Below the pieces are notes generated by a model. The model ran no database searches. It was not told where the DNA came from and worked only from the letters and a program-made list of their open reading frames with translations. The position numbers and the translations under genes were made by a program. A stretch of DNA of 64,000 bases from a virus (Duplodnaviria; Heunggongvirae; Uroviricota; Caudoviricetes), in the IMG/VR virus record IMGVR_UViG_3300046474_000274, positions 36,425-100,424 of that record. One strand, written 5' to 3'. Shown in pieces: positions 3,054-33,087 of this stretch. Every line of letters begins with the position of its first letter. The stretch's first letter is position 1.

Positions 3054-3375
3054 TGGCAGCCTTGCCTACCTCGCCCGTCGCTGGCGCGGTGAAATCTTCT
3101 GCTGCGGAGAGGCCAATATCTCCGCAGCGATGGCCCTTAACAAGGAAGAATGGGCCTTCGACCATGACCATCTCCTCGAATTTCGCTTGAAGAAGGTGAA
3201 ATACGTCGGCGTCATCGAGCGCGAACGGGGCGGCATGATCTACCTCACGACGCTCGACGCCTGCATGGATCCGACGATCTATAAGTTCCGCAATTACGAG
3301 GCGCGGGGCGGTGCCATGCAGCACTACGTCAACCATCGGCATTTCATCAAGCTCGCCGGCAAGACGACCTTCTGA
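2938..3375 (+). CDS. hypothetical basic protein; overlaps the ASCH ORF by 116 nt in the +1 frame
   Basis: ORF track 2938..3375; very high GC3 from 2938 onward; GGAG 9 nt upstream of the ATG. Confidence 0.55.
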   Translation: MVAKRKFPRPPQRKFSKANVKWVVKRKARTIGAVYELSDGSLAYLARRWRGEIFCCGEANISAAMALNKEEWAFDHDHLLEFRLKKVKYVGVIERERGGMIYLTTLDACMDPTIYKFRNYEARGGAMQHYVNHRHFIKLAGKTTF

Positions 3376-3384
3376 ATCCGCTCG

Positions 3385-3447
3385 GAACCTGACGCGCTCC
3401 CATGCGCGTATCGCTATAAGTGACGATGTAAGTAAGAGATTACTTAG
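3385..3447 (+). promoter_or_regulatory. early promoter/operator cassette: hairpin GACGCGC..GCGCGT, then TCGCTATAAG, then palindrome TAAGTAAGagatTACTTAG, 12 nt before the sbcD ATG
   Basis: Member of a family of about 20 copies. Confidence 0.7.
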
Positions 3448-3459
3448 AAAGGAATTCAC

Positions 3460-4554
3460 ATGAAGTTCGCCGTTCTCGCTGACATTCACGCTTATGGCTC
3501 GACCGTCTATTCCGGCACCGGAGTTGATGGCATCAACACGCGCCTCTCGCTCATCCTCAGCGAACTGCAGCGGGCGGCTCTGACGCTACAGGCGCAGGGC
3601 GGCAACCTCATGTTCATCGCCGGTGATATCTTTCACACGCGCGGCTCGATCGACCCGGAAGTGTTGAACCCGCTCCGGGCGACGATCGAGGAGATCCTCA
3701 ACATGGGGATCGACATTCACGCGATCCCCGGCAACCACGATCTCAAGAGCAAGGACAGCCGGGCGCTGTCCTCGCAGATCGAGAACCTGGCCCAGATCTC
3801 CATCGCCGGTGGCATGTTCAAGTGCTACAACGAGGTCACATCCTTCCAGGTCGAGGGCGAGTGGTTCGGCTTCGTGCCGTGGCGCGCGTCCAACAAGGAT
3901 CTTCTCGAAGATCTCGGCGACCTGTCGGCGCATCCCAATCATGCCGAGATGCACGTCTTCATCCACGCAGGCATCGACGGCGTTCTCTCGGGTATGCCGG
4001 CGCATGGTCTGACCGATGGCGACCTCGCGGCGTTTGGCTTCAAGCGCGTCTACGCCGGCCACTACCACAACCATGTGATCTTCCCCGGCGACAAGGTCGT
4101 GTCGATCGGTGCGACCACCCATCACAATTGGGGTGACGTTGGCACCCGTGCCGGCTTCCTGATGGTCGAGACCGACGCCGACACGGTTTCCTTCCACGAC
4201 ACCCGCGCGCCGAAGTTCGCCGACCTGTCCGGCCTGGACGAGCTGGAAATGGAGCTCGAGTGCCGGGGCAACTATGTCCGCTTCCGCGGCCCGACCATGA
4301 CCCAGGCGGAAATCAACGAGCTCCGCGACCAGTTCCGCAAGTGGGGCGCTCTCGGCGTGTCGATCGAGGTGCCGAAGGCAACGGTCGCAACCCGCGCGGC
4401 CACCGCGACCACGAAGGGCGTCACGCTCGATCAGTCCGTCGCCAATTTTGTCGACGCGAAGAAGGACATTCCGGCGTCGATCGACCGGGCGGCCCTCAAG
4501 AAGCGCGCCCAGGAAGTCCTCGATAAGTCCCGCACGGTCTTTGAAGAAGCCTGA
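3460..4554 (+). CDS. sbcD: SbcD/Mre11-family nuclease (calcineurin-like phosphoesterase)
   Basis: ORF track; motifs LADIHAYGS, FIAGDIFH and IPGNHD; promoter cassette immediately upstream. Confidence 0.85.
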   Translation: MKFAVLADIHAYGSTVYSGTGVDGINTRLSLILSELQRAALTLQAQGGNLMFIAGDIFHTRGSIDPEVLNPLRATIEEILNMGIDIHAIPGNHDLKSKDSRALSSQIENLAQISIAGGMFKCYNEVTSFQVEGEWFGFVPWRASNKDLLEDLGDLSAHPNHAEMHVFIHAGIDGVLSGMPAHGLTDGDLAAFGFKRVYAGHYHNHVIFPGDKVVSIGATTHHNWGDVGTRAGFLMVETDADTVSFHDTRAPKFADLSGLDELEMELECRGNYVRFRGPTMTQAEINELRDQFRKWGALGVSIEVPKATVATRAATATTKGVTLDQSVANFVDAKKDIPASIDRAALKKRAQEVLDKSRTVFEEA

Positions 4555-15266: not shown

Positions 15267-15340
15267 GCCGGGGTAGCTTAGGGCAGAGCAGCGACTTTCA
15301 GAGGTCGCAGGTCGAGGTTCGACTCCTTGCCCCGGAGCCA
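15267..15340 (+). tRNA. atypical tRNA-like gene: cloverleaf with a G1:A72 mismatch and an 8-nt anticodon loop UUUCAGAG (UCA if read as a 7-nt loop)
   Basis: T-arm CGAGG-TTCGACT-CCTTG; acceptor GCCGGGG/CCCCGGA with encoded CCA; D-arm TAGCTTAGGGCAGAGC; anticodon stem GCGAC/GTCGC. Confidence 0.45.
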
Positions 15341-15968: not shown

Positions 15969-16044
15969 GGGGTCGTGGGTGAACTGGTCCAGCCACCGGA
16001 TTGCAAATCCGTCTATGCAGGTTCGAATCCTGTCGATCCCTCCA
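15969..16044 (+). tRNA. tRNA-Cys(GCA)
   Basis: GGATTGCAAATCCGTCTA is identical to the E. coli tRNA-Cys anticodon arm; T-arm GCAGG-TTCGAAT-CCTGT; acceptor GGGGTCG/CGATCCC plus T and CCA. Confidence 0.8.
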
Positions 16045-16132: not shown

Positions 16133-18526
16133 ATGCAGGTTTCATCGATCGCAGAACTGGACACACACGCCGTCATCGGTGGTGGAAAAGCCGAAGCTTT
16201 CGGCATGTCAGAGTCCGCAGAATTCTTCACCGTGCTTTCAGACACGCTCTATCGCGACAAGATCCGCGCGGTCGCCCGCGAAGTGATCTGCAACGCCTGG
16301 GACGCGCATATCATGGTCGGCGCAACCGACCGCCCGATCGAGATCACGCTGACTGACCAGGAGCTTATCATCCGCGACCACGGTCCCGGTATTGCGCCCG
16401 AGCGCATGCGTCCGATCTACTGCATCTACGGCGCCTCGACCAAGGTCAAGGACGAGAACCAGACGGGCGGCTTCGGTCTCGGCTCGAAGGCACCTTTCGC
16501 CTATTCCGACCACTTCTCGGTCGTCTCGGCTCATGAAGGTCTGCGCACCGTCTACGCTGTCTCGCGCGGTGGTGCAGAGACTGACGGCAAGCCCGACATG
16601 CGCGCCATGGTCCAGACGCCGACCAAGAATTCCGGCATCACCGTCTCGATCCCGATCCGCTCGCGTGATGACCGGCTCAGGTTCGAAAGCCACATCACGG
16701 CAGTCGTCAAGCAGGGCGGCATCAAGGCGCTGCTGAACGAGCAGGAGATGTTCACCTTCGATTACACCGAAGCTCGCAAGCGCGGCTATGCCCTGTGCGG
16801 CCAGAGCGCCGATTTGCGCGAGTCCCAGGTATACGTTCTCTACGGCACCGTGCTCTATCCGGTCTCCGGCACGAACTCCGACCTGGCGCACGCCGTCAAC
16901 TCGATCTCGAACTACAAGGATCACGGCGACAAGTTCATCCTGATCGCCAAGCCCAACACCGTCGGCGTGACGCCCTCCCGCGAGTCCCTCTCCTATTCTG
17001 ATCGCACTGTCGCGACGATCCTGGGGCTGATCACCAACATCAAGAAGTCGGTCGAAGGCCACGGCCGCAAGGCTGTGAAGGAGATCATCAAGGGTCGCCT
17101 GAAGGAAGCCAAGCGCTACGAAATCCGCAGCGATATCATCAACAGCGGCAGTCGGATCTCGACCCGTGGCGAAGTCGTCACCGATGCCAAGGCGCTCGCC
17201 AAGATCGCAGCGTCCGGAAACATGGACGCATTCACGACGGCGCTGCAGCGCCACAAGATCGTCATGGACGAGATGGCGAAGAAGTATCGCGACGATCGCC
17301 GCTTCTTCCGTCGCAACCGGCACACCATGTTCCGCAACCGCAGCTACTACGGTCAATACGCCGTCTCCAGCGAGCGCGACCAGTTCCTGAACGAGTCCCG
17401 GCTTGTCCGGCGCCTGATCGCCAAGTTCGATCTTTTCGGCAGCGCGTTCGTCAGCCATTGGGACGAAATCCAGGGTCGCAAGCTGATCCCGCTCGAAGAG
17501 TTCAACCACTTCGGCGCCGTCAACCAGCGCCTTATCTTCGCACCGACGCAGCGTGACGGCTTCAAGGCAGCCCGTGAATACCACGCGCTGGCGAAGGACG
17601 AGCCTGGCTACGAGCGCAAGCTGACCCTCGTCATCATCAATCGGCGCCTGTCGCCTGAAACGCTCGACAAGATCCGCGATGCTGCAAAGCACTGGAAGAT
17701 CGACATCGAGACCACGAACTTCGCCAAGCCCATCCGTCGCAAGCGGGCTGATATCGGCATCTACTACTCGCTGCGCGATGTGAAGGAAAACAAGGACGGC
17801 TACGTCCACAAGATCGATGAGATCAAGACCCTCTTAAAGGCTAACTACTACATGCCGATGCGCGGCGGGCTCGATCGCCTGGAGATGGACAAGTCTCTCT
17901 TCCAGGTGCGTGACAAGATTCTCGAACGCTATGGCGATGTTGCCTTGGCGATGTCGAGCAAGACCGAGGCGAAGCTCAAGGCTGCCGGCGCGAAGAACAT
18001 CTACGACGCACTGTTCGCCGACCTGCAGAAGGCCAACAACAGCCGCGAGGCGCAGATCGCCTCGATGATGCAGCATGACGGGTTCATCCAGAATCCGCAT
18101 TGGCACTCGCCTGGTCGCCTGATCAACGAGCTGTGCCACAAGGACATGAAGTTCGTGACCTTCTTCTTCGGCGTCAAGCCGTCGAAGGGCACGGCACTCG
18201 AAGACGCCAAGTTTCTGATGAGCGCTCTTGGCGGCAACCGCAATAGCGGTCGCGTCAGCCGTCACAATAACTCCGTCTCGCAGGAGATGGACCGGACCTA
18301 CGCTGAGGCCAAGAAGACCTTTGCGCACCTCATCCTTGACCGTGATCAGTCGGAGAAGGTCTTCGCCTGGCTCAAGCCCCTCACCGGCATGGGCGTCTCT
18401 CAGCGTGGCGACACGTCGAAGGACGATCTCATGACCATCCTGAAGTTCCTGAAGCGGACCTTCAGCGTCAAGTCTACCCCGAACAACGACAACGCAACGC
18501 TCGAAGAAGCCAAGGAGGCAGCATGA
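16133..18526 (+). CDS. Hsp90/GHKL (Bergerat-fold) ATPase family protein, 797 aa
   Basis: ORF track; N-box AREVICNAWDA (compare Hsp90 RELISNASDA); G1 IRDHGPGI; G2 TGGFGLGSKAPF; AGAGGCAGC RBS. Confidence 0.8.
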   Translation: MQVSSIAELDTHAVIGGGKAEAFGMSESAEFFTVLSDTLYRDKIRAVAREVICNAWDAHIMVGATDRPIEITLTDQELIIRDHGPGIAPERMRPIYCIYGASTKVKDENQTGGFGLGSKAPFAYSDHFSVVSAHEGLRTVYAVSRGGAETDGKPDMRAMVQTPTKNSGITVSIPIRSRDDRLRFESHITAVVKQGGIKALLNEQEMFTFDYTEARKRGYALCGQSADLRESQVYVLYGTVLYPVSGTNSDLAHAVNSISNYKDHGDKFILIAKPNTVGVTPSRESLSYSDRTVATILGLITNIKKSVEGHGRKAVKEIIKGRLKEAKRYEIRSDIINSGSRISTRGEVVTDAKALAKIAASGNMDAFTTALQRHKIVMDEMAKKYRDDRRFFRRNRHTMFRNRSYYGQYAVSSERDQFLNESRLVRRLIAKFDLFGSAFVSHWDEIQGRKLIPLEEFNHFGAVNQRLIFAPTQRDGFKAAREYHALAKDEPGYERKLTLVIINRRLSPETLDKIRDAAKHWKIDIETTNFAKPIRRKRADIGIYYSLRDVKENKDGYVHKIDEIKTLLKANYYMPMRGGLDRLEMDKSLFQVRDKILERYGDVALAMSSKTEAKLKAAGAKNIYDALFADLQKANNSREAQIASMMQHDGFIQNPHWHSPGRLINELCHKDMKFVTFFFGVKPSKGTALEDAKFLMSALGGNRNSGRVSRHNNSVSQEMDRTYAEAKKTFAHLILDRDQSEKVFAWLKPLTGMGVSQRGDTSKDDLMTILKFLKRTFSVKSTPNNDNATLEEAKEAA

Positions 18527-20067
18527 GCAAGATCCGCATCGTCGGTGCCATTGCCAGTGCAAACGGCATCACTTTCTACCTCGAAAACGGTGAAGAATTG
18601 AACCGTCCGAAGGATACCGCCCAGACGCGCCTGATCCTCGACCAGACGGTTGAAGCTCTCGCCCGTCACGAGATCGTCGAACTCGACCTGGACGACTACT
18701 CAGTCGAACGGCGCATCGAAGAACGCACGGGCGGCGCGATCCGCTTCCTGAAGACCACGGCTAAGCGCTTCAAGTCTCTCATGGGCATGGGCAACGCTTC
18801 CGACGCCGTTCTGATCGGCCGTCTGGAACGCCTGGCCGCGAAGCCTGCCCCGGCTCCCACTGCCGAGGTGGTCAAGAAGGAAGAGGAAGTCACCATCGCT
18901 GTCGTCAAGACCGCAACCGGTGAAGTCGCCATTCCGCACATCCAGCAGATCGACAAGCAGTTGGAACATGCGGCGTTCGAAAACGTCGTCGGCTTCCAGC
19001 GCTTCATGGATCGCATCGCGGCTGTTGCCTCGCAGCGCAAGCATACGGTCGATGAACTGCTCAACTTCATGAAGATGGGCGACTTGCCGATCGCGGAAGA
19101 TGGCTCGATCGTCGCCTACAAGATGCTCTACAACATGGGCGATCACTACGTCGATCCGCACACGAGGAAGGTCAAGCAGAAGCTCGGCTCGCACGTCTCG
19201 ATGCCGATCGATATCGTGGATGATAGCCGGCGCCATGAATGCTCGACGGGGCTGCACATCGCCCGTCGCGGCTATATCAAGTCGTTCAACGGCGATGCGA
19301 TCATGGTCGTAAAGGTCGCACCGGAAGACGTGATCGCGGTTCCGCACAACGAGCCGAACAAGATGCGCGCCGCTGCATATCATATCGTCGCCGAGGTGCC
19401 GAAGGAAGGTTTCGACCTGCTCAAGGCGAACCGCCCGATGACCTCGCACGAAGCGTCTTCGCGTCTCCTTGCCGATGTTATCGCCGGTCAGCATCCGAAG
19501 GTGCTCGAATACGTCCGCATCAACGGCACGATGGGCCAGGACGTGGTGATCACGCCGGCGGAAGGCACGACCTTCGAGAAGATCATGACGACCGGCAAGC
19601 TGGCGAAGGCGCTCGATGAAGGCGTCAACGTGGTCTCGCTCAAGTCGATCCGTGATCGTGCAGAGGCTGCTATCGTGGCTCAGAAGGAGGTGGAGACGCG
19701 GACTGAGGTGACGAAGCCGACGGTCGTTCAGTCCGCTGCAGCATCCGGGGATTATGGCGCCGCGATTAACGCCGCAGCGACGGCAGCGCCCACGAAGGCT
19801 GAGTCGCCGAAGGCCGCGTCTTCGCCGGCCCCGACGAAGGCAGCCAAGCCGACGCGGGCGAAGGCGGCCGAGACCGATCTGACCGACAAGAACGACGCCT
19901 ACATTGATGCGGCGCCTGCCGAGGCACCGAAGATCGACAAGAAGGCTGAAGCGCTTCGTCTGCATGGCGAAGGCAAGTCGAACCGTCAGATCGAGGCTGA
20001 GCTGCACATTTGCCGCAAGACCTTGAAGAAGTTGTTCGACAAGAACGGCCTGAAGCCCAACGGCTGA
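18523..20067 (+). CDS. hypothetical 514-aa protein with a C-terminal sigma-region-4/LuxR-like HTH and an AAASGDYGAAINAAAT linker motif
   Basis: ORF track; ATGA overlap with the GHKL gene; C-terminal GKSNRQIEAELHICRKTLKKLF. Confidence 0.7.
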   Translation: MSKIRIVGAIASANGITFYLENGEELNRPKDTAQTRLILDQTVEALARHEIVELDLDDYSVERRIEERTGGAIRFLKTTAKRFKSLMGMGNASDAVLIGRLERLAAKPAPAPTAEVVKKEEEVTIAVVKTATGEVAIPHIQQIDKQLEHAAFENVVGFQRFMDRIAAVASQRKHTVDELLNFMKMGDLPIAEDGSIVAYKMLYNMGDHYVDPHTRKVKQKLGSHVSMPIDIVDDSRRHECSTGLHIARRGYIKSFNGDAIMVVKVAPEDVIAVPHNEPNKMRAAAYHIVAEVPKEGFDLLKANRPMTSHEASSRLLADVIAGQHPKVLEYVRINGTMGQDVVITPAEGTTFEKIMTTGKLAKALDEGVNVVSLKSIRDRAEAAIVAQKEVETRTEVTKPTVVQSAAASGDYGAAINAAATAAPTKAESPKAASSPAPTKAAKPTRAKAAETDLTDKNDAYIDAAPAEAPKIDKKAEALRLHGEGKSNRQIEAELHICRKTLKKLFDKNGLKPNG

Positions 20068-20084
20068 TTCCACCTGAATAACCC

Positions 20085-20143
20085 GCGCGCAATGTGATGT
20101 CATCCGTCGCATTGCGCGCTATAAACTAAGTAAGCACTTACTT
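20085..20143 (+). promoter_or_regulatory. promoter cassette copy (10-bp hairpin GCGCGCAATG..CATTGCGCGC, then GCGCTATAAACTAAGTAAGCACTTACTTTT)
   Basis: Family member. Confidence 0.65.
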
Positions 20144-20160
20144 TTAACGGAGCATTTACT

Positions 20161-20340
20161 ATGACGGCCTGGCTCACATGCGTAATCGGCATAGTCGCCA
20201 CCCTTCTCTTGATTTTCGCCTGGCTGACGCACGTCGTCGTCTGCATCGCGACCGCCTCCTGGATGCTGCTGTTTGTCGGCGCCATCGGCTTCCCGATCGG
20301 CATCGTCCACGGCCTCATGATCTGGTTCGGCGCCATTTAA
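20161..20340 (+). CDS. small membrane protein (59 aa, two predicted TM helices)
   Basis: ATG 12 nt after the promoter palindrome; hydrophobic throughout; below the ORF-track cutoff. Confidence 0.5.
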   Translation: MTAWLTCVIGIVATLLLIFAWLTHVVVCIATASWMLLFVGAIGFPIGIVHGLMIWFGAI

Positions 20341-20349
20341 GGAATTCAC

Positions 20350-21039
20350 ATGCCCCTGATCGTTCACAAGCACACCGAAATCATGAGCCCGACGCCGGCT
20401 CCCGTCACGCGCGGCCAGTATATGCACTCCGCAAACGGCCGGAAGATCTATCCGTTCGACCCGCGTCCGGAGGAAATCAACATCGGCGTCGTCGCCCATC
20501 ACCTGGCGACCAACAATCGCTGGAATGGCGCCACGCAGCACAAGCGGTTCAGGACTCGGATCTCGTATTCGGTCGCGGAGCACTCGGTCTACTGCGCCCG
20601 CTACATTCGCGAGGTATTGCAGCGGCCGGACCTCGAACTTGAGGCGCTGCTCCACGACGGGCCGGAATACATCACCGGCGACCTGATCCGGCCGCTCAAG
20701 CATTCGCCGCAGATCCACCCGATCTATTCCCAGGTCGAGGATAAGATCGAGCAGGCGTTCGCCAAGCGTTTCGGATTGCTCTATCCGCTCCCGAAGGAAG
20801 TGAAGATGGCTGACGAAGCCGTCTGCGCCGCGGAGTCGATCCAGATCGTGCCGAAGGATCCCTGCGAAGAATGGCAGTCGGGCAAGATGCACGACGACAG
20901 CAAGGTAGCTCCTTACGAAATTCAGATGCTGGATGCCTTCCCCGCGAAGGAATTCTTCCTGATGGAATATGAAGACGCCATTCGTCGCCGGCCGAATTAC
21001 GCTGATCTCCCGTCTTCTGTTGAGCTATATTCTAAGTAA
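20350..21039 (+). CDS. HD-domain phosphohydrolase (YfbR-like 5'-deoxynucleotidase family)
   Basis: ORF track; H...HD...D pattern (VAHHLA and LLHDGPEYITGD). Confidence 0.75.
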   Translation: MPLIVHKHTEIMSPTPAPVTRGQYMHSANGRKIYPFDPRPEEINIGVVAHHLATNNRWNGATQHKRFRTRISYSVAEHSVYCARYIREVLQRPDLELEALLHDGPEYITGDLIRPLKHSPQIHPIYSQVEDKIEQAFAKRFGLLYPLPKEVKMADEAVCAAESIQIVPKDPCEEWQSGKMHDDSKVAPYEIQMLDAFPAKEFFLMEYEDAIRRRPNYADLPSSVELYSK

Positions 21040-23822: not shown

Positions 23823-23860
23823 GCGGCCGACGAGTCCCACCTGTTGTTCTCGTCGGCCGC
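23823..23860 (+). terminator. 12-bp hairpin GCGGCCGACGAG..CTCGTCGGCCGC after the gene ending at 23802
   Basis: No T-run. Confidence 0.35.
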
Positions 23861-23888
23861 TCACCACCTCATGCATCCCAAAATCGAT

Positions 23889-23919
23889 AGCGCTATAAGC
23901 TAAGTAAGAGATTACTTAG
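23889..23919 (+). promoter_or_regulatory. promoter cassette copy (AGCGCTATAAGCTAAGTAAGAGATTACTTAG)
   Basis: Family member. Confidence 0.65.
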
Positions 23920-23933
23920 CGGAGGAGAATTAC

Positions 23934-24215
23934 GTGAACCTCTACTTCATCAACGGAAGCGACGACAACGGCGACAGCATGGATCTCTTTGTGCGCGGCG
24001 AGTCTCCGCAGGAAGCGTTCGATATCTGGAAGGCCAACGATATCGCCCTCGGTTGGTCGGTCGTCTTCGAAGGCGTTCTTTCATCTGAGCCGGCCGAAGA
24101 AGCCGGGGTCGAAGATCTCCGCTTCTATCTCGTGCCGGAGAACAACGACGCCGGCGCCCTCGACTGGCACACGCCGGATGGCGTCAATTGCGTCGCCCAC
24201 GCCAACCCGATCTGA
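23934..24215 (+). CDS. hypothetical protein (GTG start)
   Basis: ORF track; GGAGGAG 7 nt upstream; promoter cassette upstream. Confidence 0.5.
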   Translation: MNLYFINGSDDNGDSMDLFVRGESPQEAFDIWKANDIALGWSVVFEGVLSSEPAEEAGVEDLRFYLVPENNDAGALDWHTPDGVNCVAHANPI

Positions 24216-24225
24216 GGAAACGTCC

Positions 24226-24678
24226 ATGTGGATCAACGTCTCCGACAAAGAAGCCGACCTCATCAGTTACGCGCTGAGTTCCTATTTCGCCGCGACCGGT
24301 GAAGAAGCCTGCTTCGATCTGAGGGAGAGGCTCTCGCGGCGCAAGAAAGCCTTCACCGCTGATCCTACCTGCTGCATCGACCAGATGGCCGGCGAGCTGG
24401 TCTACGGCGAAGAAGGCGGCGACTTCCAGGCTGCCGCCTTCGAGAAGCTCGACAGCCTCACCAACGGCTCCATCCACTACGACCAGGACACGATCATCGC
24501 CAGGGATGGAGCAGGTGGCGCCTACGTCATGGGCTGGATCCACATTTCAGACCTCCCGGACGATGAAGACGCCTGCCGCGAGTGCGGCGAGCACTACGCG
24601 GATGGTGGCGACGGTTACAACGGGCGCTGCCCCGACTGCGCCGATAAAGCAGAACAGGAAGGACGTTCCGATGACTGA
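24226..24678 (+). CDS. hypothetical protein with a C-terminal Zn-binding CxxC pair
   Basis: In frame with ORF 23989..24678; GAGGAAA RBS. Confidence 0.55.
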   Translation: MWINVSDKEADLISYALSSYFAATGEEACFDLRERLSRRKKAFTADPTCCIDQMAGELVYGEEGGDFQAAAFEKLDSLTNGSIHYDQDTIIARDGAGGAYVMGWIHISDLPDDEDACRECGEHYADGGDGYNGRCPDCADKAEQEGRSDD

Positions 24679-25024
24679 GATTTTCGTATTCGGCTCAAAC
24701 CTGGCCGGCCGTCACGGCGCAGGTGCCGCACTCTACGCGCTCCAGCACAAGGGCGCGATTTACGGCCAGGGCGTCGGGCTGCAGGGTGAATCCTATGGCA
24801 TCCCGACCAAGGACACTCTCATTCGCACCCTGCCGCTGCCGTATATCGACCAGGCGATCGACGACTTCATGACGTTCGCCAAGTCCCGGCCGGACCTCAC
24901 CTTCGACGTGACGCCGATCGGCTGCGGTCTGGCCGGCTATAAGCGCGAGCAGATCCGTCCTCTCTTCGAGGGTATGCCGGATAACTGCCGCTTCAACCCG
25001 AGCTGGGATGAGCATGTTGGCTAA
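24671..25024 (+). CDS. small Rossmann-like protein, possibly SLOG/LOG-DprA-like (motif FVFGSNLAGRHGAGAA)
   Basis: In frame with ORF 24506..25024; AGGAAGGA RBS. Confidence 0.45.
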   Translation: MTEIFVFGSNLAGRHGAGAALYALQHKGAIYGQGVGLQGESYGIPTKDTLIRTLPLPYIDQAIDDFMTFAKSRPDLTFDVTPIGCGLAGYKREQIRPLFEGMPDNCRFNPSWDEHVG

Positions 25025-25370
25025 GATGCGCGCACTCCTCCCCTATCAGAAGCACGCTGAGGACTTCTTCGGCATCACCAATCCCGACCGGGGCTTCTTC
25101 ATCAACGTCTATCTCCGGGAGGTCGGCACGCCTGGCGAGCATCTGGAACCGGGCAATCTCTGGGCGAACCGGAGGGAAGCTGCTGTCAACGGTCGCGCCC
25201 AGGTCAAGGGAAGCAGTGACAAGATCGCCTACCGCATTCGCGTGAAACCGAAGGGTCCGATCCCGAGGCGCCCGCCGCCCGAGCCATTCCCGTCTCGCGG
25301 GTTTTATCAGCCTTTCTATTTTCACGGGCCTTGCATGTGCCAGTCCCGTTCCATGAGGAGTTTTAGATGA
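25008..25370 (+). CDS. hypothetical protein
   Basis: ORF track 25008..25370. Confidence 0.4.
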   Translation: MSMLAKMRALLPYQKHAEDFFGITNPDRGFFINVYLREVGTPGEHLEPGNLWANRREAAVNGRAQVKGSSDKIAYRIRVKPKGPIPRRPPPEPFPSRGFYQPFYFHGPCMCQSRSMRSFR

Positions 25371-26800
25371 GCAACATCACCGGCAAGACGCTTGTTTCCT
25401 GGGGTCTGCAGCCTGGCGCCTGGTTTAAGGAGGCTCTGCCGATCGCCCGCGAAATGCGCGCCACTGGCAAGAGCGACAAGGAGATCATCCAGGCCCTGTT
25501 CCCGATGCAGGCAGCCAAGGCGATCGATGAAGGCGTGCCGCTGCGCACTAACAACATTCCATTCGGCCAGTTCATCGAGCCGGAAGGTGACGACGAGAAG
25601 GCGAATGTCGCCTCGGTTCTCGCTCATATGGACGCGCTGATGCGTGTTCCGACGATCGAGAAGGGTGCAGTCATGCCGGATGCGTGCCCTTCCGGCTCGG
25701 CGCTCGGCACCATCCCTGTCGGTGGTGTGGTCGCGACCAAGAACGCGATCCATCCGGGCTTCCACTCCGCGGACATCTGCTGCTCGATGGCGATCTCCGT
25801 CTTCAAGCGCGACACGCCTGTAGATTACGTCCTCGACATTGCGATGAAGGCGTCTCACTTCGGCGTCGGCAAGCGCACGGCATCGGAAGCGCGCCAGTAT
25901 AAGGATCTGGTGCAGTTGGTGGGCGGCTTCGATGCGAACCCCTTCCTGAAGGGCCTCGAGGATTACGCCATTCACCACTTCATGACGCAGGGCGACGGCA
26001 ATCACTTCTTCTATGTCGGGCAGCTCGAAAGCACCGGGCAGATGGCGATCGTCACGCACCACGGCTCGCGCGGTCTGGGCGGCCAGCTCTACAAGCGCGG
26101 CAAGGCAGCAGCCGAGCGTCACACGCGCATCGTCGCAGGGCGGATCCCGCTGCACAACGCATGGATCGAGGCAGATAGCCAGGTCGGCCAGGATTACTGG
26201 CAGGCGCTGCAGGCAATCCGCCTGTGGACGAAGATGAACCACTTCGCGATCCACAACATCGTCGCCAAGCGCCTCGGCAATCAGATCATCGGGCAGTTCT
26301 GGAACGAACACAACTTCGTCTTCCAGCGCTCCGACGGGCTGTTCTATCACGCCAAGGGCGCAACGCCGTCGTTCAAGGGCTTTGCGAAGGACGACCAGGG
26401 TCTGACGCTGATCCCGATGAACATGGCGCAGCCGATCCTGATCGCCGAGCACGCCGAGAATGAAGATGCCCTTGGCTTTGCACCGCACGGCGCCGGCCGC
26501 AATCTCTCCCGCACCGGGCACATCAAGCGGCTGATGGCAGAGTTCGGCGACACGCGCGGTCTGGGGCCGAATGCGATCAAGGCGATCATGGAGCGCGAGA
26601 CCAAGGGCCTCGATGTCCGCTTTTACACCGGCGACCCTGACGTTTCCGAGCTGCCGAGCGCCTACAAGAACGCGGACCAGGTCCAGGCTCAGATCGAGAA
26701 GTTCGGTCTCGCCAAGATCGCCGATCGCATTCTGCCGCGTGGCTCGATCATGGCCGGCGAAATGAAGTGGCACAAGCCCAAGAAGCCGAAGGCCGAATAA
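25367..26800 (+). CDS. rtcB: RtcB RNA 3'-phosphate/2',3'-cyclic-phosphate ligase
   Basis: ORF track; RtcB motifs GDGNHFFYVG, HHGSRGLG, NHNFV and APHGAGR; GGAG RBS. Confidence 0.9.
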   Translation: MSNITGKTLVSWGLQPGAWFKEALPIAREMRATGKSDKEIIQALFPMQAAKAIDEGVPLRTNNIPFGQFIEPEGDDEKANVASVLAHMDALMRVPTIEKGAVMPDACPSGSALGTIPVGGVVATKNAIHPGFHSADICCSMAISVFKRDTPVDYVLDIAMKASHFGVGKRTASEARQYKDLVQLVGGFDANPFLKGLEDYAIHHFMTQGDGNHFFYVGQLESTGQMAIVTHHGSRGLGGQLYKRGKAAAERHTRIVAGRIPLHNAWIEADSQVGQDYWQALQAIRLWTKMNHFAIHNIVAKRLGNQIIGQFWNEHNFVFQRSDGLFYHAKGATPSFKGFAKDDQGLTLIPMNMAQPILIAEHAENEDALGFAPHGAGRNLSRTGHIKRLMAEFGDTRGLGPNAIKAIMERETKGLDVRFYTGDPDVSELPSAYKNADQVQAQIEKFGLAKIADRILPRGSIMAGEMKWHKPKKPKAE

Positions 26801-26867
26801 CCCCTCCCGCATCCCAAAAACAACTGCGCGATACTCAATCTATCGACGCAACTGAAAGGACATGCAG

Positions 26868-28478
26868 ATGACTGCTGTTTCCGGCGTGAGTGCTCACGCC
26901 CATGACTATGACGACTTCCTGCCGTTCGCAGAAGCCGTGCGCAAGCGTTACACGGCATCGGTCGCCGGTGGTGCTCCGCTCTTCACGACCGACGCCGGCG
27001 ACCTCTGGGAGCGCTATCTCGAGGGCTTTGACGACCCGGATGAGCGCCAGCAGCACAACTGCAATTGCTGCAAGAACTTCATTCGCCATTACGGCGGCCT
27101 CGTCACCATCGACGACAAGGGTATTCAGCACTCAGCGCTCTGGGATGAGGCGCTTGTTCCGGTGTCCTTCGAGAAGGCCGCCCTTGGTCTTCGGAAGGCG
27201 GCTGTAAGGGCAACCGTCAATGGCGTCTTTCTGTCGTCCGAAACGACCTGGGGTAATGCCAAGACCGGGCTCTGGAATCACTTCTCGCTGACCCAGAGCA
27301 GCGAACGTGTCCACCGCGACCGCGTGAACACCGCGTTCCAGGTGATGGCGCAGAAGAAGCAGGACTTCGGCACGCTGAAGCATGGCCTCGCCGACTACTC
27401 CCGCGACGTTGTCGCCTCTGCAGTCAACCTGCTGGAGTCTGAAACGCTGTTTCGCTCCGAGAAGGTGATTGCGCCGGCGAAGTTCCTGCTCGCGATCCAC
27501 GACGCCTACCAGGGCAAGTTCAAGCATCGCCATGACAACCTGATCTGGAAGGCAGTCGCAACGGCCCCGGTCGGCTTCTGCACGCCGCGTTCGTCCATGA
27601 TCGGCACGCTCCTCGATGACCTGAAGGAAGGCATGAGCGTGGAGCTGGTCAAGAGCCGCTTCAAGACGAAGATGGATCCGCTGCAGTATCAGCGGCCGCA
27701 GTCAGCGCCGTCGGCAGGCAATATCGCCGTCGCCGAGAAGCTGGTCGAAAAGCTGGGCATTCAGAACTCCCTCAAGCGTCGTTTCGCCCGCCTCGACGAG
27801 GTCGAGACCATCTGGAAGCCTGCGGCACCTGCTAGTGCGCCGGCAGCGGGCGGTGTCTTCGGTCATCTGACGCCGAAGGGCGCAGCGTTCTCGATGCAGG
27901 CCGCACCCGTCGCACCGGTTAAGAACATCACCTGGGAGAAGTTCTTCCGGACGGTTGTTCCGAAGGCTCTGTCGATGGAAATGCAGATGCGTTCGGTGAG
28001 TGCCGCCTTCGTGGCGCTGGTAACGGCCGAGGATCCCGATGCCCCGCCGATCCTGCAGTGGGATAAGGAAGACAAGCGCAATCCGTTCTCCTGGTATCTC
28101 TACAGCGGTGGCTCGATGCCCGGTAATTGGAACCTGCCGTCGTCAGGCTGGATCAAGGTCAACGGCATCAGTCTGAAGCCGTCTGCCTGGCACCGCGATC
28201 CGGACGCTGAAGACAATCAGGGCAAGGGCGCTCTCTTCATCCTCGACGGCTGCCGTGACCTGCGCACGCCCGGCCTGTGCCTCTTCCCGGAGATCCTCAA
28301 GTCGAGCCTTCACGAGGTTCGCAAGACGATCGAGGCGTTCTCCCATCGCGGAACTTTGTCCGGTCAGAACGAGGCGTCCGCTTGCGGCGTCCTTTGTGGC
28401 CAGGTGGGTCTGAACTATGGCGTTCGCGTGACGACTGACCTCGGTCGCGCCGACTACCTCGTCGATCGTTGGGATTGA
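26868..28478 (+). CDS. hypothetical 537-aa protein, no recognised motifs
   Basis: ORF track 26862..28478; second ATG has better RBS spacing. Confidence 0.7.
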   Translation: MTAVSGVSAHAHDYDDFLPFAEAVRKRYTASVAGGAPLFTTDAGDLWERYLEGFDDPDERQQHNCNCCKNFIRHYGGLVTIDDKGIQHSALWDEALVPVSFEKAALGLRKAAVRATVNGVFLSSETTWGNAKTGLWNHFSLTQSSERVHRDRVNTAFQVMAQKKQDFGTLKHGLADYSRDVVASAVNLLESETLFRSEKVIAPAKFLLAIHDAYQGKFKHRHDNLIWKAVATAPVGFCTPRSSMIGTLLDDLKEGMSVELVKSRFKTKMDPLQYQRPQSAPSAGNIAVAEKLVEKLGIQNSLKRRFARLDEVETIWKPAAPASAPAAGGVFGHLTPKGAAFSMQAAPVAPVKNITWEKFFRTVVPKALSMEMQMRSVSAAFVALVTAEDPDAPPILQWDKEDKRNPFSWYLYSGGSMPGNWNLPSSGWIKVNGISLKPSAWHRDPDAEDNQGKGALFILDGCRDLRTPGLCLFPEILKSSLHEVRKTIEAFSHRGTLSGQNEASACGVLCGQVGLNYGVRVTTDLGRADYLVDRWD

Positions 28479-28483
28479 TCCCC

Positions 28484-28556
28484 TACATGGGAGCGCTCAT
28501 CACCTGGGCGCTCCCAATCTCGTTTGCGCTATAAGATAAGTAAGCAATTACTTTAG
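28484..28556 (+). promoter_or_regulatory. hairpin GGGAGCGC-tcatcacctg-GGCGCTCCC followed by GCGCTATAAGATAAGTAAGCAATTACTTTAG
   Basis: Family member. Confidence 0.65.
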
Positions 28557-28566
28557 CGAGGACGAA

Positions 28567-28755
28567 ATGAGCGAAACGCAGCGCATCGTAGGTCACGTCA
28601 CCAACGCCCGCTTTCTCACCATCGGCTCCGACAAGCAGGTGCTCGCCGGCACGCTGGACGGCAAGACCTTCTATTCCGAGCCGATCATCGAGCTCGACGG
28701 CAACATTATCCGGACTGCCAACGGCAGCTTCCGCTACAGCAGGAGCATTCACTGA
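28567..28755 (+). CDS. hypothetical protein
   Basis: ORF track; promoter cassette upstream. Confidence 0.5.
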   Translation: MSETQRIVGHVTNARFLTIGSDKQVLAGTLDGKTFYSEPIIELDGNIIRTANGSFRYSRSIH

Positions 28756-29792
28756 TGCGGGATTTCCACTACGGCATCTACATCGGCCGCTTTCAGCCGC
28801 TGCACATCGGTCATGAGCAGGTCATTCGCCAGGCGCTTGAGCGCTGCGAGACCCTGATCGTCATCGTCGGCTCGAGCCACATGGCGCGCAACCCGGTCAA
28901 TCCGTTCATCTTCGAGGAGCGCGAGGCGATGCTGCGCGCTGCCTTTCATCACGAGATGGCATCGGGCCGCATGATCGTCCTGCCCCTCTACGACTACGAG
29001 CATGACTACGACTGGTCGACCAACCTCAAGAAGGGCGTCACCGAAGCCATTCTCGATCACGCCAATAAGGGCGGCATCCGCCTGCACGGCACTCGCGACT
29101 TCAAGATCGCGCTCACCGGCTACGGCAAGGACTCCTCGTCCTACTATCTCGATATGTTCCCCGAGTGGGATAACATCCAGATCGATACGCAGCACGGCAC
29201 GATCAACGCGTCCGATATCCGCTACGATTATTTCCGTCGGCTCCCGCGCATGCCGCACGATGCCGTGTCGCCGAAGATCCTCACCTTTCTCAAGGAATTC
29301 TCGCTCACCGAGCCGTTCAAGGATCTCGTCGCCTACAAGGACGCGCTGTCCCGCGACAACATCGATTATGGTCAGGGTCCGTTTCTCGCGGCAGATGTGC
29401 TGATCACCTGGCGCGGCAAGATCCTGCTGATCACGCGCGGCAAGGATGTTGGCAAGGGCACGCTCGCCATGCCGGGCGGCTTCGTCGAGAAGGGTGAGCG
29501 CTTCCTGGACGCCGCGATCCGCGAGCTGAAGGAAGAAGCAAACATCGACGGCCAGGATATCGCCGACTACCTCGCCGGCCACACGCTGGCCGACAACCCG
29601 AAGCGCTCGCTGCGGGGCCGGATCGTGTCGATGGTCTTCCACTTTGACATTCCCGCCGAGGTCGAGGTCACGACGCCGAAGGGCGGCGACGATGCCTCGC
29701 ACGCCGATTGGTATGACTTCGAGAGCCTCGGCACCGAGCGCTTCTACGAAGATCACCACACCCTCATCACCAACATTCTTACTGGGGAGTAA
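28755..29792 (+). CDS. nadM: bifunctional NMN adenylyltransferase / Nudix hydrolase (NadM-like)
   Basis: ORF track; HxGH-type motif GRFQPLHIGH; C-terminal Nudix box GGFVEKGERFLDAAIRELKEEANI. Confidence 0.85.
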   Translation: MRDFHYGIYIGRFQPLHIGHEQVIRQALERCETLIVIVGSSHMARNPVNPFIFEEREAMLRAAFHHEMASGRMIVLPLYDYEHDYDWSTNLKKGVTEAILDHANKGGIRLHGTRDFKIALTGYGKDSSSYYLDMFPEWDNIQIDTQHGTINASDIRYDYFRRLPRMPHDAVSPKILTFLKEFSLTEPFKDLVAYKDALSRDNIDYGQGPFLAADVLITWRGKILLITRGKDVGKGTLAMPGGFVEKGERFLDAAIRELKEEANIDGQDIADYLAGHTLADNPKRSLRGRIVSMVFHFDIPAEVEVTTPKGGDDASHADWYDFESLGTERFYEDHHTLITNILTGE

Positions 29793-29794
29793 CC

Positions 29795-31246
29795 ATGAGG
29801 AACATCATCCTCTCGACCGACAGCTACAAGCACTCGCACTTCCTGCAGTATCCGCCCGGTGCGCAGTCCGTCTCCTCCTACATCGAGGCGCGCCGCGGCT
29901 CCGACAAGAAGCAGGTCTCGCTCTTCTTCGGCCTGCAGGCATTCCTGCTCGAATACCTGTCCGAATCCTTCACGCACGATGACGTGGAAGAAGCCGAGGA
30001 GCTCTGCAAGGTTCACGGCCTGCCGTTCAACCGCGAAGGCTGGGACTACATCCTCAAGGAACACCACGGCTACCTGCCGATCGAGATCCAGGCACTGCCG
30101 GAAGGCACGCTTGTTCCGCGCGGCACGCCGCTGATCCAGGTCAGGAACACCGACCCGAAGGTTCCGTGGCTGACGAGCTTCATCGAGACGGCGCTGCTGC
30201 GGGCCATCTGGTATCCGACTTCGGTCGCGACCCTGTCCTTCATCACCAAGGCGATCATCTACGACGCCCTGAAGCGCACGTCGGACAATCCGGACGCTCA
30301 GATCCCGTTCAAGCTGCACGACTTCGGCGCCCGCGGCGTCTCCTCCGGCGAGAGCGCCATGCTCGGCGGGATGGCGCACCTGGTCAACTTCAAGGGCACT
30401 GACACGCTCGAAGCCATCCAGGGCGCGATGCACTACTATCATGCTGCCTCGATGCCGGGCTTCTCCATCCCTGCATCCGAACATTCGACCATGACGAGCT
30501 GGGGCAAGGATCGCGAGTCCGCTGCCTACGCCAACATGATCGAGCGGTTCGGCGACGGGCTCTTCTCGATTGTCTCCGACAGCTACGACCTGTTCAACGC
30601 GGTCGAAAGCATCTTCGGCGACGAGCTGAAGGAGAAGATCCTCAACATCAAGGGCAAGCTGATCATCCGGCCGGACTCGGGCGACCCGATCTCGACGCCG
30701 ATCGCCGTCATCAGGAAGCTCTGGGAGATCTTCGGCGGGACCGTCAACTCGAAGGGCTACAAGGTGCTCAACGAGAAGATCGCCGTCATCCAGGGCGACG
30801 GCATGAACGGTTCCTCGATCGCCCATCTCGTGACCTCGCTGGTCGCTGAAGGCTTCTCCATCGACAATATCGCCTTCGGTATGGGCGGCGGACTGCTGCA
30901 GGGTCACATGCGCGACGACATGCGCTTCGCCATGAAGGCCAATGCGATCGACTTCGGCGATGGCTGGGTCGATGTCCAGAAGAAGCCCGCGACGGATCCC
31001 TTGAAGGCGTCGAAGGCAGGTCGCCAGGCTGTCATCAGTATCGACGGCGAGCTCGAAAGCGTCCGCGAGGATGCTCTGGAACAGCTCACCGGTGAAGTGA
31101 ACCTCCTCGAGGTCGTCTGGTCGAACGGTCAGATGGTGCGCGAGCACACCTGGGAAGAGGTCACGGAGCGCGCCCACAAGGAGCTCCAGAACTTCACCGA
31201 CACGGTGATGAAGCGCTCCGAGGAACAGGCGGAAGCGGCTGAATAA
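29795..31246 (+). CDS. nadV: nicotinamide phosphoribosyltransferase (NAMPT/NadV)
   Basis: ORF track; N-terminus ILSTDSYKHSH is typical of NAMPT; 483 aa. Confidence 0.9.
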   Translation: MRNIILSTDSYKHSHFLQYPPGAQSVSSYIEARRGSDKKQVSLFFGLQAFLLEYLSESFTHDDVEEAEELCKVHGLPFNREGWDYILKEHHGYLPIEIQALPEGTLVPRGTPLIQVRNTDPKVPWLTSFIETALLRAIWYPTSVATLSFITKAIIYDALKRTSDNPDAQIPFKLHDFGARGVSSGESAMLGGMAHLVNFKGTDTLEAIQGAMHYYHAASMPGFSIPASEHSTMTSWGKDRESAAYANMIERFGDGLFSIVSDSYDLFNAVESIFGDELKEKILNIKGKLIIRPDSGDPISTPIAVIRKLWEIFGGTVNSKGYKVLNEKIAVIQGDGMNGSSIAHLVTSLVAEGFSIDNIAFGMGGGLLQGHMRDDMRFAMKANAIDFGDGWVDVQKKPATDPLKASKAGRQAVISIDGELESVREDALEQLTGEVNLLEVVWSNGQMVREHTWEEVTERAHKELQNFTDTVMKRSEEQAEAAE

Positions 31247-31586: not shown

Positions 31587-32435
31587 ATGAACCTTTTCAA
31601 GCTCATCCCGGCAGCGATTGTCGGTTTCATCGTCCTCGCTGCCGGCACTGGCTCTTTCTACCAGATCGACCAGGGCGAAGTCGGCGTCGTTCTGACCAAC
31701 GGGCGTGTGTCCTCGATCTCTGAAGCCGGTCTGCACTTCAAGACGCCGTTTGTCGATGAAGTCCGCTACATCTCCACGCAGACGCAGGCGCTGGAGTTCA
31801 AGGACGAATCCGCGTTCTCGACCGATCGTCAGGAAGTTCACGTTTCCTTCTCGATCAACTACACGCCGATCCCGTCTCAGGCCGGTGTTATCTACAGCCG
31901 CTACGGCTCGCTCGCCGTATTCGAACAGCGCGACCTGGTTCGCAAGGCACGTCAGGAGATGAAGGTCGTCGTTGGTCGCTACTCGATCGACGAGGCGATC
32001 AAGAACCGGGCAAAGCTGATTTCCGAGATCACCGGCTCCGTCACCAATCTTGGCGATGATATCGTGAAGATCGACAGCCTGCAGGTCGAAGATATCGTCT
32101 TCTCCAAGGTCGTTCTCGATGCTGCCGAAAAGCGCACCGTCGCCGAAATGCTCGTCAATACGAAGGAGCAGCAGCGCCTGGTCGCCGAGAAGGAAGCCTC
32201 GATCCAGGTGATCCAGGCTCAGGCACAGGCTGACAGTAACCTCAAGATTGCAACCGCTCAGGCTGACGCTGTGAAGCTGCAGGGCGAAGCCGAGGCTGCT
32301 GCGCTGCGTGCCAAGAACGACGCGATCAAGGAGTCTCCGAACTTGGTTGAGCTGACGAAGGCTCAGAAGTGGGATGGCAAGTTGCCGACCTCGTTCATTC
32401 CGGGCTCTGCAACGCCGTTCCTCAACATCAAGTAA
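31587..32435 (+). CDS. SPFH/band-7 (stomatin/prohibitin/HflK-like) membrane protein
   Basis: ORF track; N-terminal TM helix; SPFH core QIDQGEVGVVLTNGR...KTPFVDEV; C-terminal coiled coil. Confidence 0.85.
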   Translation: MNLFKLIPAAIVGFIVLAAGTGSFYQIDQGEVGVVLTNGRVSSISEAGLHFKTPFVDEVRYISTQTQALEFKDESAFSTDRQEVHVSFSINYTPIPSQAGVIYSRYGSLAVFEQRDLVRKARQEMKVVVGRYSIDEAIKNRAKLISEITGSVTNLGDDIVKIDSLQVEDIVFSKVVLDAAEKRTVAEMLVNTKEQQRLVAEKEASIQVIQAQAQADSNLKIATAQADAVKLQGEAEAAALRAKNDAIKESPNLVELTKAQKWDGKLPTSFIPGSATPFLNIK

Positions 32436-32486: not shown

Positions 32487-32508
32487 GTTAGAGGCTATGG
32501 AGAGACAC

Positions 32509-33087
32509 ATGAGCACCAACTACAAGACCGCAGCCGCCCGGATCGAAGAAGCCCTCAAGGGCGCTGACGGCCTGGACAACTGGCATAAGTATGGCGAGGG
32601 CTATGGCTCGCTCCGCTCCGACATGGAAAAGCTGGCGAAGGATCTCGCCGGCAGCTACGACAACCCCGCCACCGTGGTCGTGCCGCTGGTCGAGGTCAAT
32701 GGTGGACTGCTGCTCGTGCGGCGCAAGCTCGCCGACGGCTATGGCAAGCTGGCGCTACCGGGCGGCTATCAGGCACTCGGCGAGACCTGGGAAGAAGCCG
32801 GCGCGCGTGAGGTGCTTGAGGAGACCGGCGTCGCGATCCGCCCGAGCGATCTGACGATCGTTGGTGTCGATACGGTCGAGGGTGGAAAGGTCAATCTGAT
32901 CTTCTGCCAGGCGATGTTCAAGGTCGCGGCTGACCTGAAGCCGCAGGAGGATGAGGTGATCGAGGTCGTCATCGCCGAGCGGGCGCCGGATCCCGCGGAA
33001 GTCGCCTTCCCGGCTCATTGGGCGCGTATCAACGCCTGGTTTATGATGGGTCGGGATCTGCTCTTCCCTACCGACAACCACGACTGA
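32509..33087 (+). CDS. Nudix hydrolase
   Basis: In frame with ORF 32497..33087; Nudix box GGYQALGETWEEAGAREVLEETG. Confidence 0.8.
   Translation: MSTNYKTAAARIEEALKGADGLDNWHKYGEGYGSLRSDMEKLAKDLAGSYDNPATVVVPLVEVNGGLLLVRRKLADGYGKLALPGGYQALGETWEEAGAREVLEETGVAIRPSDLTIVGVDTVEGGKVNLIFCQAMFKVAADLKPQEDEVIEVVIAERAPDPAEVAFPAHWARINAWFMMGRDLLFPTDNHD

Follow-up and report, generated by a model that had tools for sequence, protein, structure and literature searches.

The 64,000-nt stretch analysed here (positions 36,425 to 100,424 of IMG/VR virus record IMGVR_UViG_3300046474_000274, Caudoviricetes; hereafter the window, whose numbering is used unless another locus is named) carries a gene for an RtcB-type RNA ligase, which we examined together with its neighbours. 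The original prediction had described the region as a tRNA-damage counter-defence island in which RtcB is preceded by a small SLOG/LOG-like protein and followed by a large protein that may be its specificity or cofactor partner. A 5-kb query around the RtcB region matched only Rhizobium phages; RHph_X66, B1VFA and V1VFA-S, with genomes of ~118-122 kb, were 84-87% identical over most of the query. Judged by this similarity, the window phage is a ~120-kb Rhizobium phage, kin to RHph_X66 and B1VFA. The genome of RHph_X66 is of siphovirus type, with lambda-like tail genes, DNA polymerase III alpha, ribonucleotide reductase (RNR), ThyX and rIIA/rIIB. Almost all window genes are on the + strand, and the RtcB region sits immediately downstream of rIIA (16133-18526) and rIIB (18523-20067), in the early/accessory region, with the following layout:

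23860..23918, + strand: copy of a promoter-like motif, GCATCCCA - N13 - GCTATAAG - TAAGTAAGAGATTACTT, before the first gene of the unit
23934..24215, + strand: 93-aa open reading frame (ORF), first gene of the unit, kept in close relatives only
24223..24678, + strand: 151-aa ORF, phrog_6739 (3.2e-16), with a Cys-rich, zinc-ribbon-like C-terminus
24671..25024, + strand: mini-macrodomain, 117 aa, A1S_2505 / N4 gp14-like / phrog_2072 family, predicted ADP-ribose hydrolase
25008..25370, + strand: 120-aa ORF, stop codon overlapping the start of RtcB (ATGA), differing between relatives
25367..26800, + strand: RtcB RNA ligase, 477 aa, with Pfam RtcB and phrog_1075 matches and the catalytic motifs
26862..28478, + strand: DUF8224 / phrog_1735 protein, 538 aa, other possible start at 26868
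28488..28516, + strand: hairpin of 12 bp (8 G-C), found in a scan for terminator-like structures, closing the unit

For the small protein, RtcB and the large protein, the ORF listing agreed with the positions and + strand originally predicted. The large protein had been given as 537 aa, a count that includes the stop codon; the ORF is real, but encodes 538 aa from the ATG at 26862 or 536 aa from the ATG at 26868. The interval from 23901 to 28537 contains six ORFs (93-aa, 151-aa, macrodomain, 120-aa, RtcB and DUF8224) that are closely spaced or overlap by 4 to 17 nt, and the hairpin at 28488-28516 is followed at once by the next promoter-like motif (28527-28554). Because of the motif at 23901, the overlapping or tight spacing of the ORFs and the hairpin, the RtcB, macrodomain and DUF8224 genes are probably on one transcript. 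The motif reads GCTCCCA - N12-13 - GCTATAAG - TAAGTAAG-nnnn-TTACTTA; the window has 7 copies of its extended form and ~18 of its palindromic core, with ~0 expected, and a search for the 17-nt core allowing up to 3 mismatches returned 37 strand-wise matches against 0.03 expected. The ~18 sites (3429, 7786, 8908, 11937, 14599, 16101, 20127, 21033, 23901, 28537, 31287, 35993, 37650, 41961, 47675, 57885, 61310 and 63192) are intergenic, usually 10-20 nt before a ribosome-binding site and start codon. V1VFA-S also has the motif, which probably represents a phage-specific promoter combined with an operator-like palindrome. RHph_X66 encodes its own sigma-70-type factor.

The RtcB protein scored 90.7 bits against Pfam RtcB (PF01139; 1.6e-25; gathering cut-off 27) and matched phrog_1075 at 2.2e-95. 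It had been said to carry all hallmark motifs, and alignment to the Pyrococcus horikoshii enzyme bore this out: D136 and C139 (SADICC), H213 (GNHF), H231 (HHGSRG), H315 (EHN) and H374 (PHGAGR) are present and align with P. horikoshii Asp95, Cys98, His203, His234, His329 and His404, all six metal/nucleophile residues are invariant in 30 homologues of the clade, and by alignment to the P. horikoshii structures H374 is the GMP-attachment histidine. Together with its above-threshold Pfam score and an overall length similar to that of the E. coli and P. horikoshii enzymes, this identifies the protein, at the level of homology, as a bona fide ligase of 3'-phosphate or 2',3'-cyclic-phosphate and 5'-OH ends. 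It differs from those enzymes in belonging, as its sequence indicates, to a divergent alphaproteobacterial-phage clade: it shares 95.6% of its residues with the RHph_X66 protein, scores under the NCBIfam equivalog cut-offs, matches RtcBs in the PDB only at ~1e-7, and carries a clade-specific N-terminal extension of ~90 aa outside the RtcB profile (residues 1-95, 25367-25651). Residues 4-33 of this extension (TGKTLVSWGLQPGAWFKEAL...) gave a non-significant match (E 0.22) to PF13735, the tail domain of tRNA nucleotidyltransferase (CCA-enzyme). Unlike known Rtc systems, the window RtcB shows no linkage to RtcA, RtcR, archease or Ro60. The original prediction that no archease is apparent held up, as none of the ORFs of 20-33 kb gave a Pfam or PHROG match to it; RtcB of the E. 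coli type works without archease. RtcB was found in 379 GenBank phage records (0.75% of phage records), mainly of Mycobacterium, Listeria, Caulobacter, Erwinia and Rhizobium phages. Jumbo phages, too, have genes annotated as RtcB, and phage RtcBs have already been discussed as menders of tRNAs cut by metal-independent RNases (PMC7824862).

The 117-aa protein encoded shortly upstream carries FVFGSNLAGRHGAGAA, and its assignment as SLOG/LOG-like had to be abandoned: there was no SLOG/LOG match in Pfam and no SLOG/LOG structure among the top 50 PDB matches of its model. It matched the NCBIfam 'A1S_2505 family phage non-structural protein' (A1S_2505_Nterm) at 4.5e-44 and phrog_2072 at 6.9e-45. A profile of 35 homologues found the Streptomyces coelicolor macrodomain SCO6735 as its top PDB sequence match, a weak one in which the IGCGLAG motif is identical. 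The AlphaFold (AF2) model of the protein had a pLDDT of 91.5, and in Foldseek its top 50 PDB matches were all macrodomains or serine-hydrolase designs of the same fold (OSH55 series). These were led by a Bacteroides structural-genomics protein, DarG of Mycobacterium tuberculosis and Thermus aquaticus, TARG1, SCO6735 and Poa1p, and included viral macrodomains; the probability was 1.00 to DarG, TARG1, Poa1p and SCO6735, with TM-scores of 0.6-0.7 (query-normalised). PhiKZ gp104 (AdfM) is a DarG2-like macrodomain which strips the ADP-ribose added by DarT2 off DNA, and its active site N23/K78 is equivalent to N22/K80 of DarG2 (PMC13309987). Alignment of our family profile with AdfM by hhalign (E 4.9e-5) placed N10 on N23 and K47 on K78, and both residues (24698-24700 and 24809-24811) are invariant in the 35 homologues. 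The protein is thus a mini-macrodomain of the DarG/TARG1/AdfM type with a conserved Asn/Lys catalytic pair, a type for which ADP-ribose removal, and not tRNA repair, has the best precedent. It shares the fold, the collinear motifs and the Asn10/Lys47 pair with AdfM, DarG2, TARG1 and SCO6735, and like AdfM it is the product of a stand-alone early phage gene; it differs from AdfM, DarG2 and TARG1 in size (117 aa against ~150-160), is only ~20% identical to them and belongs to a family of its own (A1S_2505 / N4 gp14-like / phrog_2072). This family was found in 429 GenBank phage records, many of them N4-like ('N4 gp14-like protein'); in a few, it is annotated as an ADP-ribose hydrolase or an ADP-ribosyltransferase gene adjoins it.

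We compared 80 viral loci of the RtcB clade. An HD-DnaQ-p261-...-RtcB synteny holds down to ~50% RtcB identity, so RtcB is a stable element of the lineage that keeps its syntenic position, while the macrodomain, DUF8224 and NARP2 genes (the last discussed below) vary in presence. DUF8224 adjoins RtcB in a single one of these loci, that of the closest relative. Ten of the loci have the macrodomain, and 3-4 have NARP2 genes, no more than 6 kb from RtcB, and clustering of neighbouring ORFs gave no family present in more than 8. The trio of macrodomain, RtcB and DUF8224 is not a conserved RtcB-centred module. V1VFA-S has no DUF8224 at this place, and the hairpin and promoter motif known from the window come straight after its RtcB stop codon; the gene is also missing from the vicinity of an RtcB 93% identical to ours (locus L086). 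The window phage, B1VFA and RHph_X66 carry DUF8224 as a 1.7-kb cassette that separates the RtcB stop from the terminator, and since the sister phage V1VFA-S keeps RtcB without it, it is not an obligate cofactor.

The large protein had been described as having no recognisable motifs. This was true of the Pfam scan (a set without PF26675) and of the NCBIfam and PADLOC scans, the PADLOC defence models giving zero matches for the four proteins scanned, but the protein does belong to phrog_1735 (7.1e-118, full length) and to Pfam DUF8224 (PF26675), a precomputed annotation of the identical protein P0001 and of each of the 120 homologues listed. Homologues are 45-55% identical across hosts as far apart as Priestia, Alcaligenaceae and Obscuribacterales. 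A profile search of 1.84 billion representatives gave 4141 clusters at 50% identity, and the best 150 of these representatives are nearly all stand-alone proteins of 520-560 aa; six longer ones among the 150 carry no Pfam domain. By TBLASTN, DUF8224 was found in 560 GenBank phage records (Salmonella, Klebsiella, Bacillus, Serratia, Caulobacter and others), where it is nearly always labelled 'hypothetical protein'. Its AlphaFold model (pLDDT 87.6) starts with an alpha/beta region that holds an invariant CxxC, continues with a helical middle part and ends in a beta-rich C-terminus, and the invariant residues include many Arg/Lys and a CxxC...H set. The model had no fold match in the PDB and matched only uncharacterised viral proteins in BFVD, a 48-sequence profile found nothing among PDB sequences at E up to 10, and our literature search found no paper on DUF8224 or PF26675 and only unrelated matches for A1S_2505. 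Identification as an unrelated structural protein, which would have counted against the original prediction, did not come about, as it is recognisable neither as a structural protein nor as an enzyme. Ro60/Rsr was considered as its identity and rejected: Pfam gave no TROVE/vWA signal, and the structural search did not match Ro60. Relatives of ~675 aa in the Ackermannviridae, Herelleviridae and phiCbK-like large lytic phages, namely Det7 gp39 (L337, 4995-7010), Ccr10 gp277 (L338, 4998-7028) and JBP901 gp067 (L339, 4998-7034), share DUF8224 residues 18 to ~450 followed by another C-terminus and gave no Pfam or PDB match. Some Dickeya phages (H66, H67) have only the CxxC-bearing N-terminal domain (residues 18-96). 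The existence of these longer and N-terminal-only versions indicates that the family is modular.

In prophages and phage contigs the usual neighbours of DUF8224 are SSB, RecA/RecT, PolA, SNF2 helicases, methylases, DUF2800 nucleases, ThyA/ThyX and dUTPase, and the Det7 relative lies beside clamp-loader genes. We queried the surroundings of DUF8224 with canonical RtcB, RtcA and RtcR in addition to the divergent phage RtcB. None of these was found within 6-8 kb in any of 82 viral or other loci, more than 95% of all DUF8224 loci examined have no Rtc gene nearby, and clustering of neighbours around viral and genome loci revealed no shared partner. The GenBank phages with DUF8224 are mainly phages of Salmonella, Klebsiella, Bacillus and Serratia, host genera which largely differ from those of the RtcB phages. 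A small number of loci depart from this pattern. On a 227-kb bacterial contig (L168), a divergent rtcR is followed by DUF8224, rtcA and rtcB, and a scan of species-representative genomes yielded one locus (L186) in which RtcR (Pfam 6.9e-80) is divergent from DUF8224, with RtcB next, and one with a looser DUF8224-Rtc proximity (L204). In L168 and L186 a sigma54-type promoter lies ~45-50 nt upstream of DUF8224 (TGGCAC-N5-TTGA and TGGCAC-N5-CTGCA, respectively). The two DUF8224 proteins are only ~50% identical, and the nearest kin of the L168 protein (70-76% identical) sit in phage DNA modules, so that the recruitments look separate and recent. A metagenome scan revealed a phage contig (L253) in which DUF8224 is followed after 4 nt by a canonical-type RtcB, 28% identical to that of the window, and another phage with DUF8224 and RtcB 5 kb apart. 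The L253 RtcB (3132-4336) is present as two ORFs of 161 aa and 232 aa (Pfam RtcB positions 14-164 and 207-425), reflecting either a frameshift/sequencing error or a truly split or decayed gene. In total, RtcB is near DUF8224 in ~5 of ~230 distinct loci against ~0.4 expected, a rough estimate that ignores kinship and takes RtcB to occur in 0.75% of phage records and, for a 16-kb span of a bacterial genome, at less than one copy per genome. No Y-RNA or tRNA-like gene was found beside DUF8224 in the window, L168, L186 or L204 at Rfam gathering thresholds. In three deltaproteobacterial loci (L196, L201 and L208), two clustered neighbouring ORFs appear by eye to be transglutaminase-like and ADP-ribosylglycohydrolase-like; in L201 they are within ~2 kb downstream of DUF8224, and in L208 a sigma54-activator-type gene lies ~5 kb from it. 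These neighbours may represent another link of DUF8224 to ADP-ribose or stress systems.

Immediately beyond the hairpin, the next transcription unit encodes two enzymes of NAD+ metabolism:

28755-29792, + strand: NMN adenylyltransferase (NMNAT)/Nudix, Pfam CTP_transf_like and NUDIX
29795-31246, + strand: nicotinamide phosphoribosyltransferase (NAMPT), Pfam NAMPT_N and NAPRTase

Their PHROG families (395 and 448) and domains identify them as a putative NARP2-type NAD+ reconstitution pathway, which consists of exactly this combination of NAMPT and bifunctional NMNAT/Nudix and is a published phage counter-defence against NAD+-depleting immunity (10.1101/2024.02.11.579819; PMC13464706). The pair is not part of the RtcB operon, having its own promoter-like motif after the hairpin, but its presence next door indicates that the region collects counter-defence genes. 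A second Nudix gene is present at 32497-33087. The phage also carries its own tRNAs, as originally claimed: ARAGORN and Rfam identified four in the window (an odd one at 15267, Cys-GCA at 15969, and Met-CAT and Trp-CCA at ~57.9-58.1 kb), two of them no more than 10 kb upstream of the RtcB unit. For the odd tRNA (15267-15340, + strand; Rfam tRNA 45.3 bits), ARAGORN called a 4-base anticodon (tcag); the 8-nt anticodon loop, TTTCAGAG, has UCA at the anticodon position and resembles that of an opal suppressor or frameshift-type tRNA, and ARAGORN made no such call in the matching part of RHph_X66. Cleavage of tRNAs in the anticodon loop was reported when the Salmonella SOS response induces the rtc operon (PMC7790460), and two window tRNAs (Cys-GCA, 15969-16044, and Trp-CCA, 58030-58105) have the same anticodons as those cleaved, which may be coincidence or a hint at the host tRNAs that are targeted.

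Other genes near RtcB were noted in addition. An SPFH/Band-7 (prohibitin-family) gene lies ~5 kb downstream (31587-32435, + strand), and a homologue was found within 6 kb of RtcB in 9 of the 80 loci (L086, L088, L091, L095, L097, L111, L120, L122 and L124), with RtcB identities as low as 54-61%; SPFH modules have reportedly been proposed as RNA-repair scaffolds. RHph_X66 has a second RNA ligase, of the ATP type, in the form of a 201-aa protein (Pfam RNA_ligase PF09414, 1.5e-15; L001, 1468-2073) encoded between rIIB and the HD phosphohydrolase gene; at the same position B1VFA carries an ORF of ~200 aa that is annotated as hypothetical (L002, 1884-2495). The RHph_X66 protein had no TBLASTN match anywhere in the window, where the corresponding position (20067-20350) holds only a 59-aa hydrophobic ORF (20161-20340). 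As for the remaining ORFs of the RtcB operon, the 93-aa ORF had no Pfam or PHROG match, the 151-aa ORF matched Pfam DZR weakly (0.013), and the 120-aa ORF, which had no family match in the Pfam/PHROG scans, is kept in RHph_X66 and replaced by an unrelated 91-aa ORF in B1VFA and V1VFA-S.

We would describe the region as an early accessory operon gathering several independent counter-measures and not as a dedicated tRNA-repair machine, and think it fairly probable that ~23901-28516 is a co-transcribed accessory operon of a Rhizobium siphophage whose genes act independently. By homology to characterised RtcBs, the ligase would work alone with GTP and Mn2+, becoming guanylylated on His374, and would join RNA 3'-phosphate or 2',3'-cyclic-phosphate ends to 5'-OH ends; it may thereby mend tRNAs or other RNAs that metal-independent host ribonucleases cleave during infection. 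The macrodomain most likely would hydrolyse ADP-ribose off nucleic acid (DarT-type) or act on a small ADP-ribose derivative, and the NARP2-type pair of the adjoining unit would restore NAD+. DUF8224 may be a factor that binds damaged nucleic acid of the class on which RtcB acts, serves it as a scaffold or processes its ends, a role suggested by the repeated recruitment of its family to Rtc systems. The RNA-repair part of the original prediction thus survives in reduced form: the location of an RtcB homologue together with phage tRNAs and NARP2-type genes makes RNA-repair counter-defence the natural reading of this gene, as is accepted for phage RtcBs, but the trio as a whole is not a conserved tRNA-repair module.

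Several points weigh against this interpretation. The promoter and terminator calls are pattern-based, and accessory phage genes cluster for unrelated reasons, so that even co-transcription is little evidence for or against. Compared with DarG, TARG1 and AdfM, the macrodomain lacks 30-40 residues, which makes its activity plausible but unproven; the hhalign probability to AdfM was only 68%, the Foldseek TM-scores were those given above, and the position of what we take to be Asp125 of TARG1 reads Ala. The protein could be a mere binder or act on another ADP-ribose derivative. Finally, the recurrent adjacency of DUF8224 and Rtc genes in three or four independent settings speaks against full independence of DUF8224 and RtcB.

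The nature of DUF8224 allows other explanations. One, which has some substance but which we do not think likely, is that it is a DNA replication/nucleotide-metabolism protein or an unrelated anti-defence protein, a pure passenger hitch-hiking in accessory hotspots. Its dominant genomic contexts, from SSB and RecA/RecT to the clamp loader, are in keeping with this, as is its cassette-like gain or loss between sister phages; hitch-hiking leaves unexplained, however, the two chromosomal RtcR/sigma54 operons that start with DUF8224, which are hard to ascribe to it.

We tentatively raise a further possibility, that DUF8224 is an unrecognised accessory factor of Rtc-type repair which would bind or process the broken RNA or 3'-phosphate DNA ends sealed by RtcB. 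In the Salmonella rsr-yrlBA-rtcBA operon, which combines Ro60/Rsr and Y RNAs with RtcB and RtcA under RtcR/sigma54, Ro60/Rsr occupies the first position ahead of rtcBA (PMC7790460), and in L168 and L186 it is DUF8224 (~540 aa, near Rsr in size) that comes first after the RtcR-dependent promoter; DUF8224 differs in that it is not a Ro60 homologue and has no Y-RNA-like gene beside it, and the phage region lacks RtcR and RtcA. That DUF8224 fills the Ro60/Rsr slot as an Rtc-associated nucleic-acid damage factor (scaffold, sensor or end-processing factor) and not as an RtcB subunit seems rather unlikely to us in this specific form. Such a factor would aid repair or triage of broken RNA or 3'-phosphate DNA ends and, where it occurs alone, would pair with host RtcB or DNA-repair enzymes. 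Beyond the two promoters and the recent recruitment of the L168 protein from phage DNA modules, its association with canonical-type RtcB in L253, its proximity to Rtc genes in L204 and L286, its insertion within the RtcB transcription unit of the window, the excess of RtcB near DUF8224 over the rough expectation and its invariant Arg/Lys and CxxC...H residues are all consistent with it. DNA damage has been discussed as a further target of RtcB and Rsr (PMC7790460); this would make an Rtc role compatible with the DNA modules in which DUF8224 occurs. The gene may have been captured independently under RtcR/sigma54 control and placed in or beside the RtcB genes of unrelated phages.

We consider improbable the stronger version of the original prediction, a dedicated tRNA-repair module in which the small and the 537-aa proteins are partners of RtcB, one of them a specificity or cofactor subunit replacing archease. 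The genes are tightly packed and probably co-transcribed, phage tRNAs are present, and a partnership of the large protein with RtcB gains something from the two RtcR/sigma54 operons and from L253; but the small protein is a macrodomain, V1VFA-S and L086 keep RtcB without DUF8224, neither protein accompanies RtcB in most of the 80 loci, DUF8224 itself mostly occurs without Rtc genes, and an RtcB of the E. coli type needs no archease to replace. The evidence fits DUF8224 as an optional accessory and not as a specificity subunit or archease replacement. Least probable is that the macrodomain and RtcB cooperate, the former stripping ADP-ribose from RNA ends or clearing by-products of the ADP-ribose-1''-phosphate type before RtcB seals, for although the structural neighbours include TARG1 and Poa1p, the yeast tRNA-splicing ADP-ribose-1''-phosphatase, and the macrodomain is just upstream of RtcB in the 6 closest loci (RtcB identity at least 66%) and within 6 kb in 4 more, some at much lower RtcB identity, its family occurs mostly in N4-like and other phages without RtcB association, no KptA/Tpt1 was seen in the region, and to our knowledge RtcB chemistry yields no 2'-phosphate or Appr>p by-product.

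RtcB in phages is not new, and macrodomains and NARP2 have experimental precedents, so that the core finding amounts to routine annotation of known kinds of protein; the sole new lead, a modest one, is the DUF8224-Rtc association. The mini-macrodomain family is a candidate second, much smaller class of anti-DarT or ADP-ribose-clearing factor. DUF8224 is among the larger uncharacterised phage families, with a confident model that has no structural relative, and its position as first gene of RtcR/sigma54 operons and within phage RtcB operons is the first testable handle on its function, for which B1VFA (with DUF8224) and V1VFA-S (without it) form a natural contrasting pair. If true, the DUF8224-Rtc link would assign a role to a very large family of orphan phage proteins and extend the Rtc repair system by one component.

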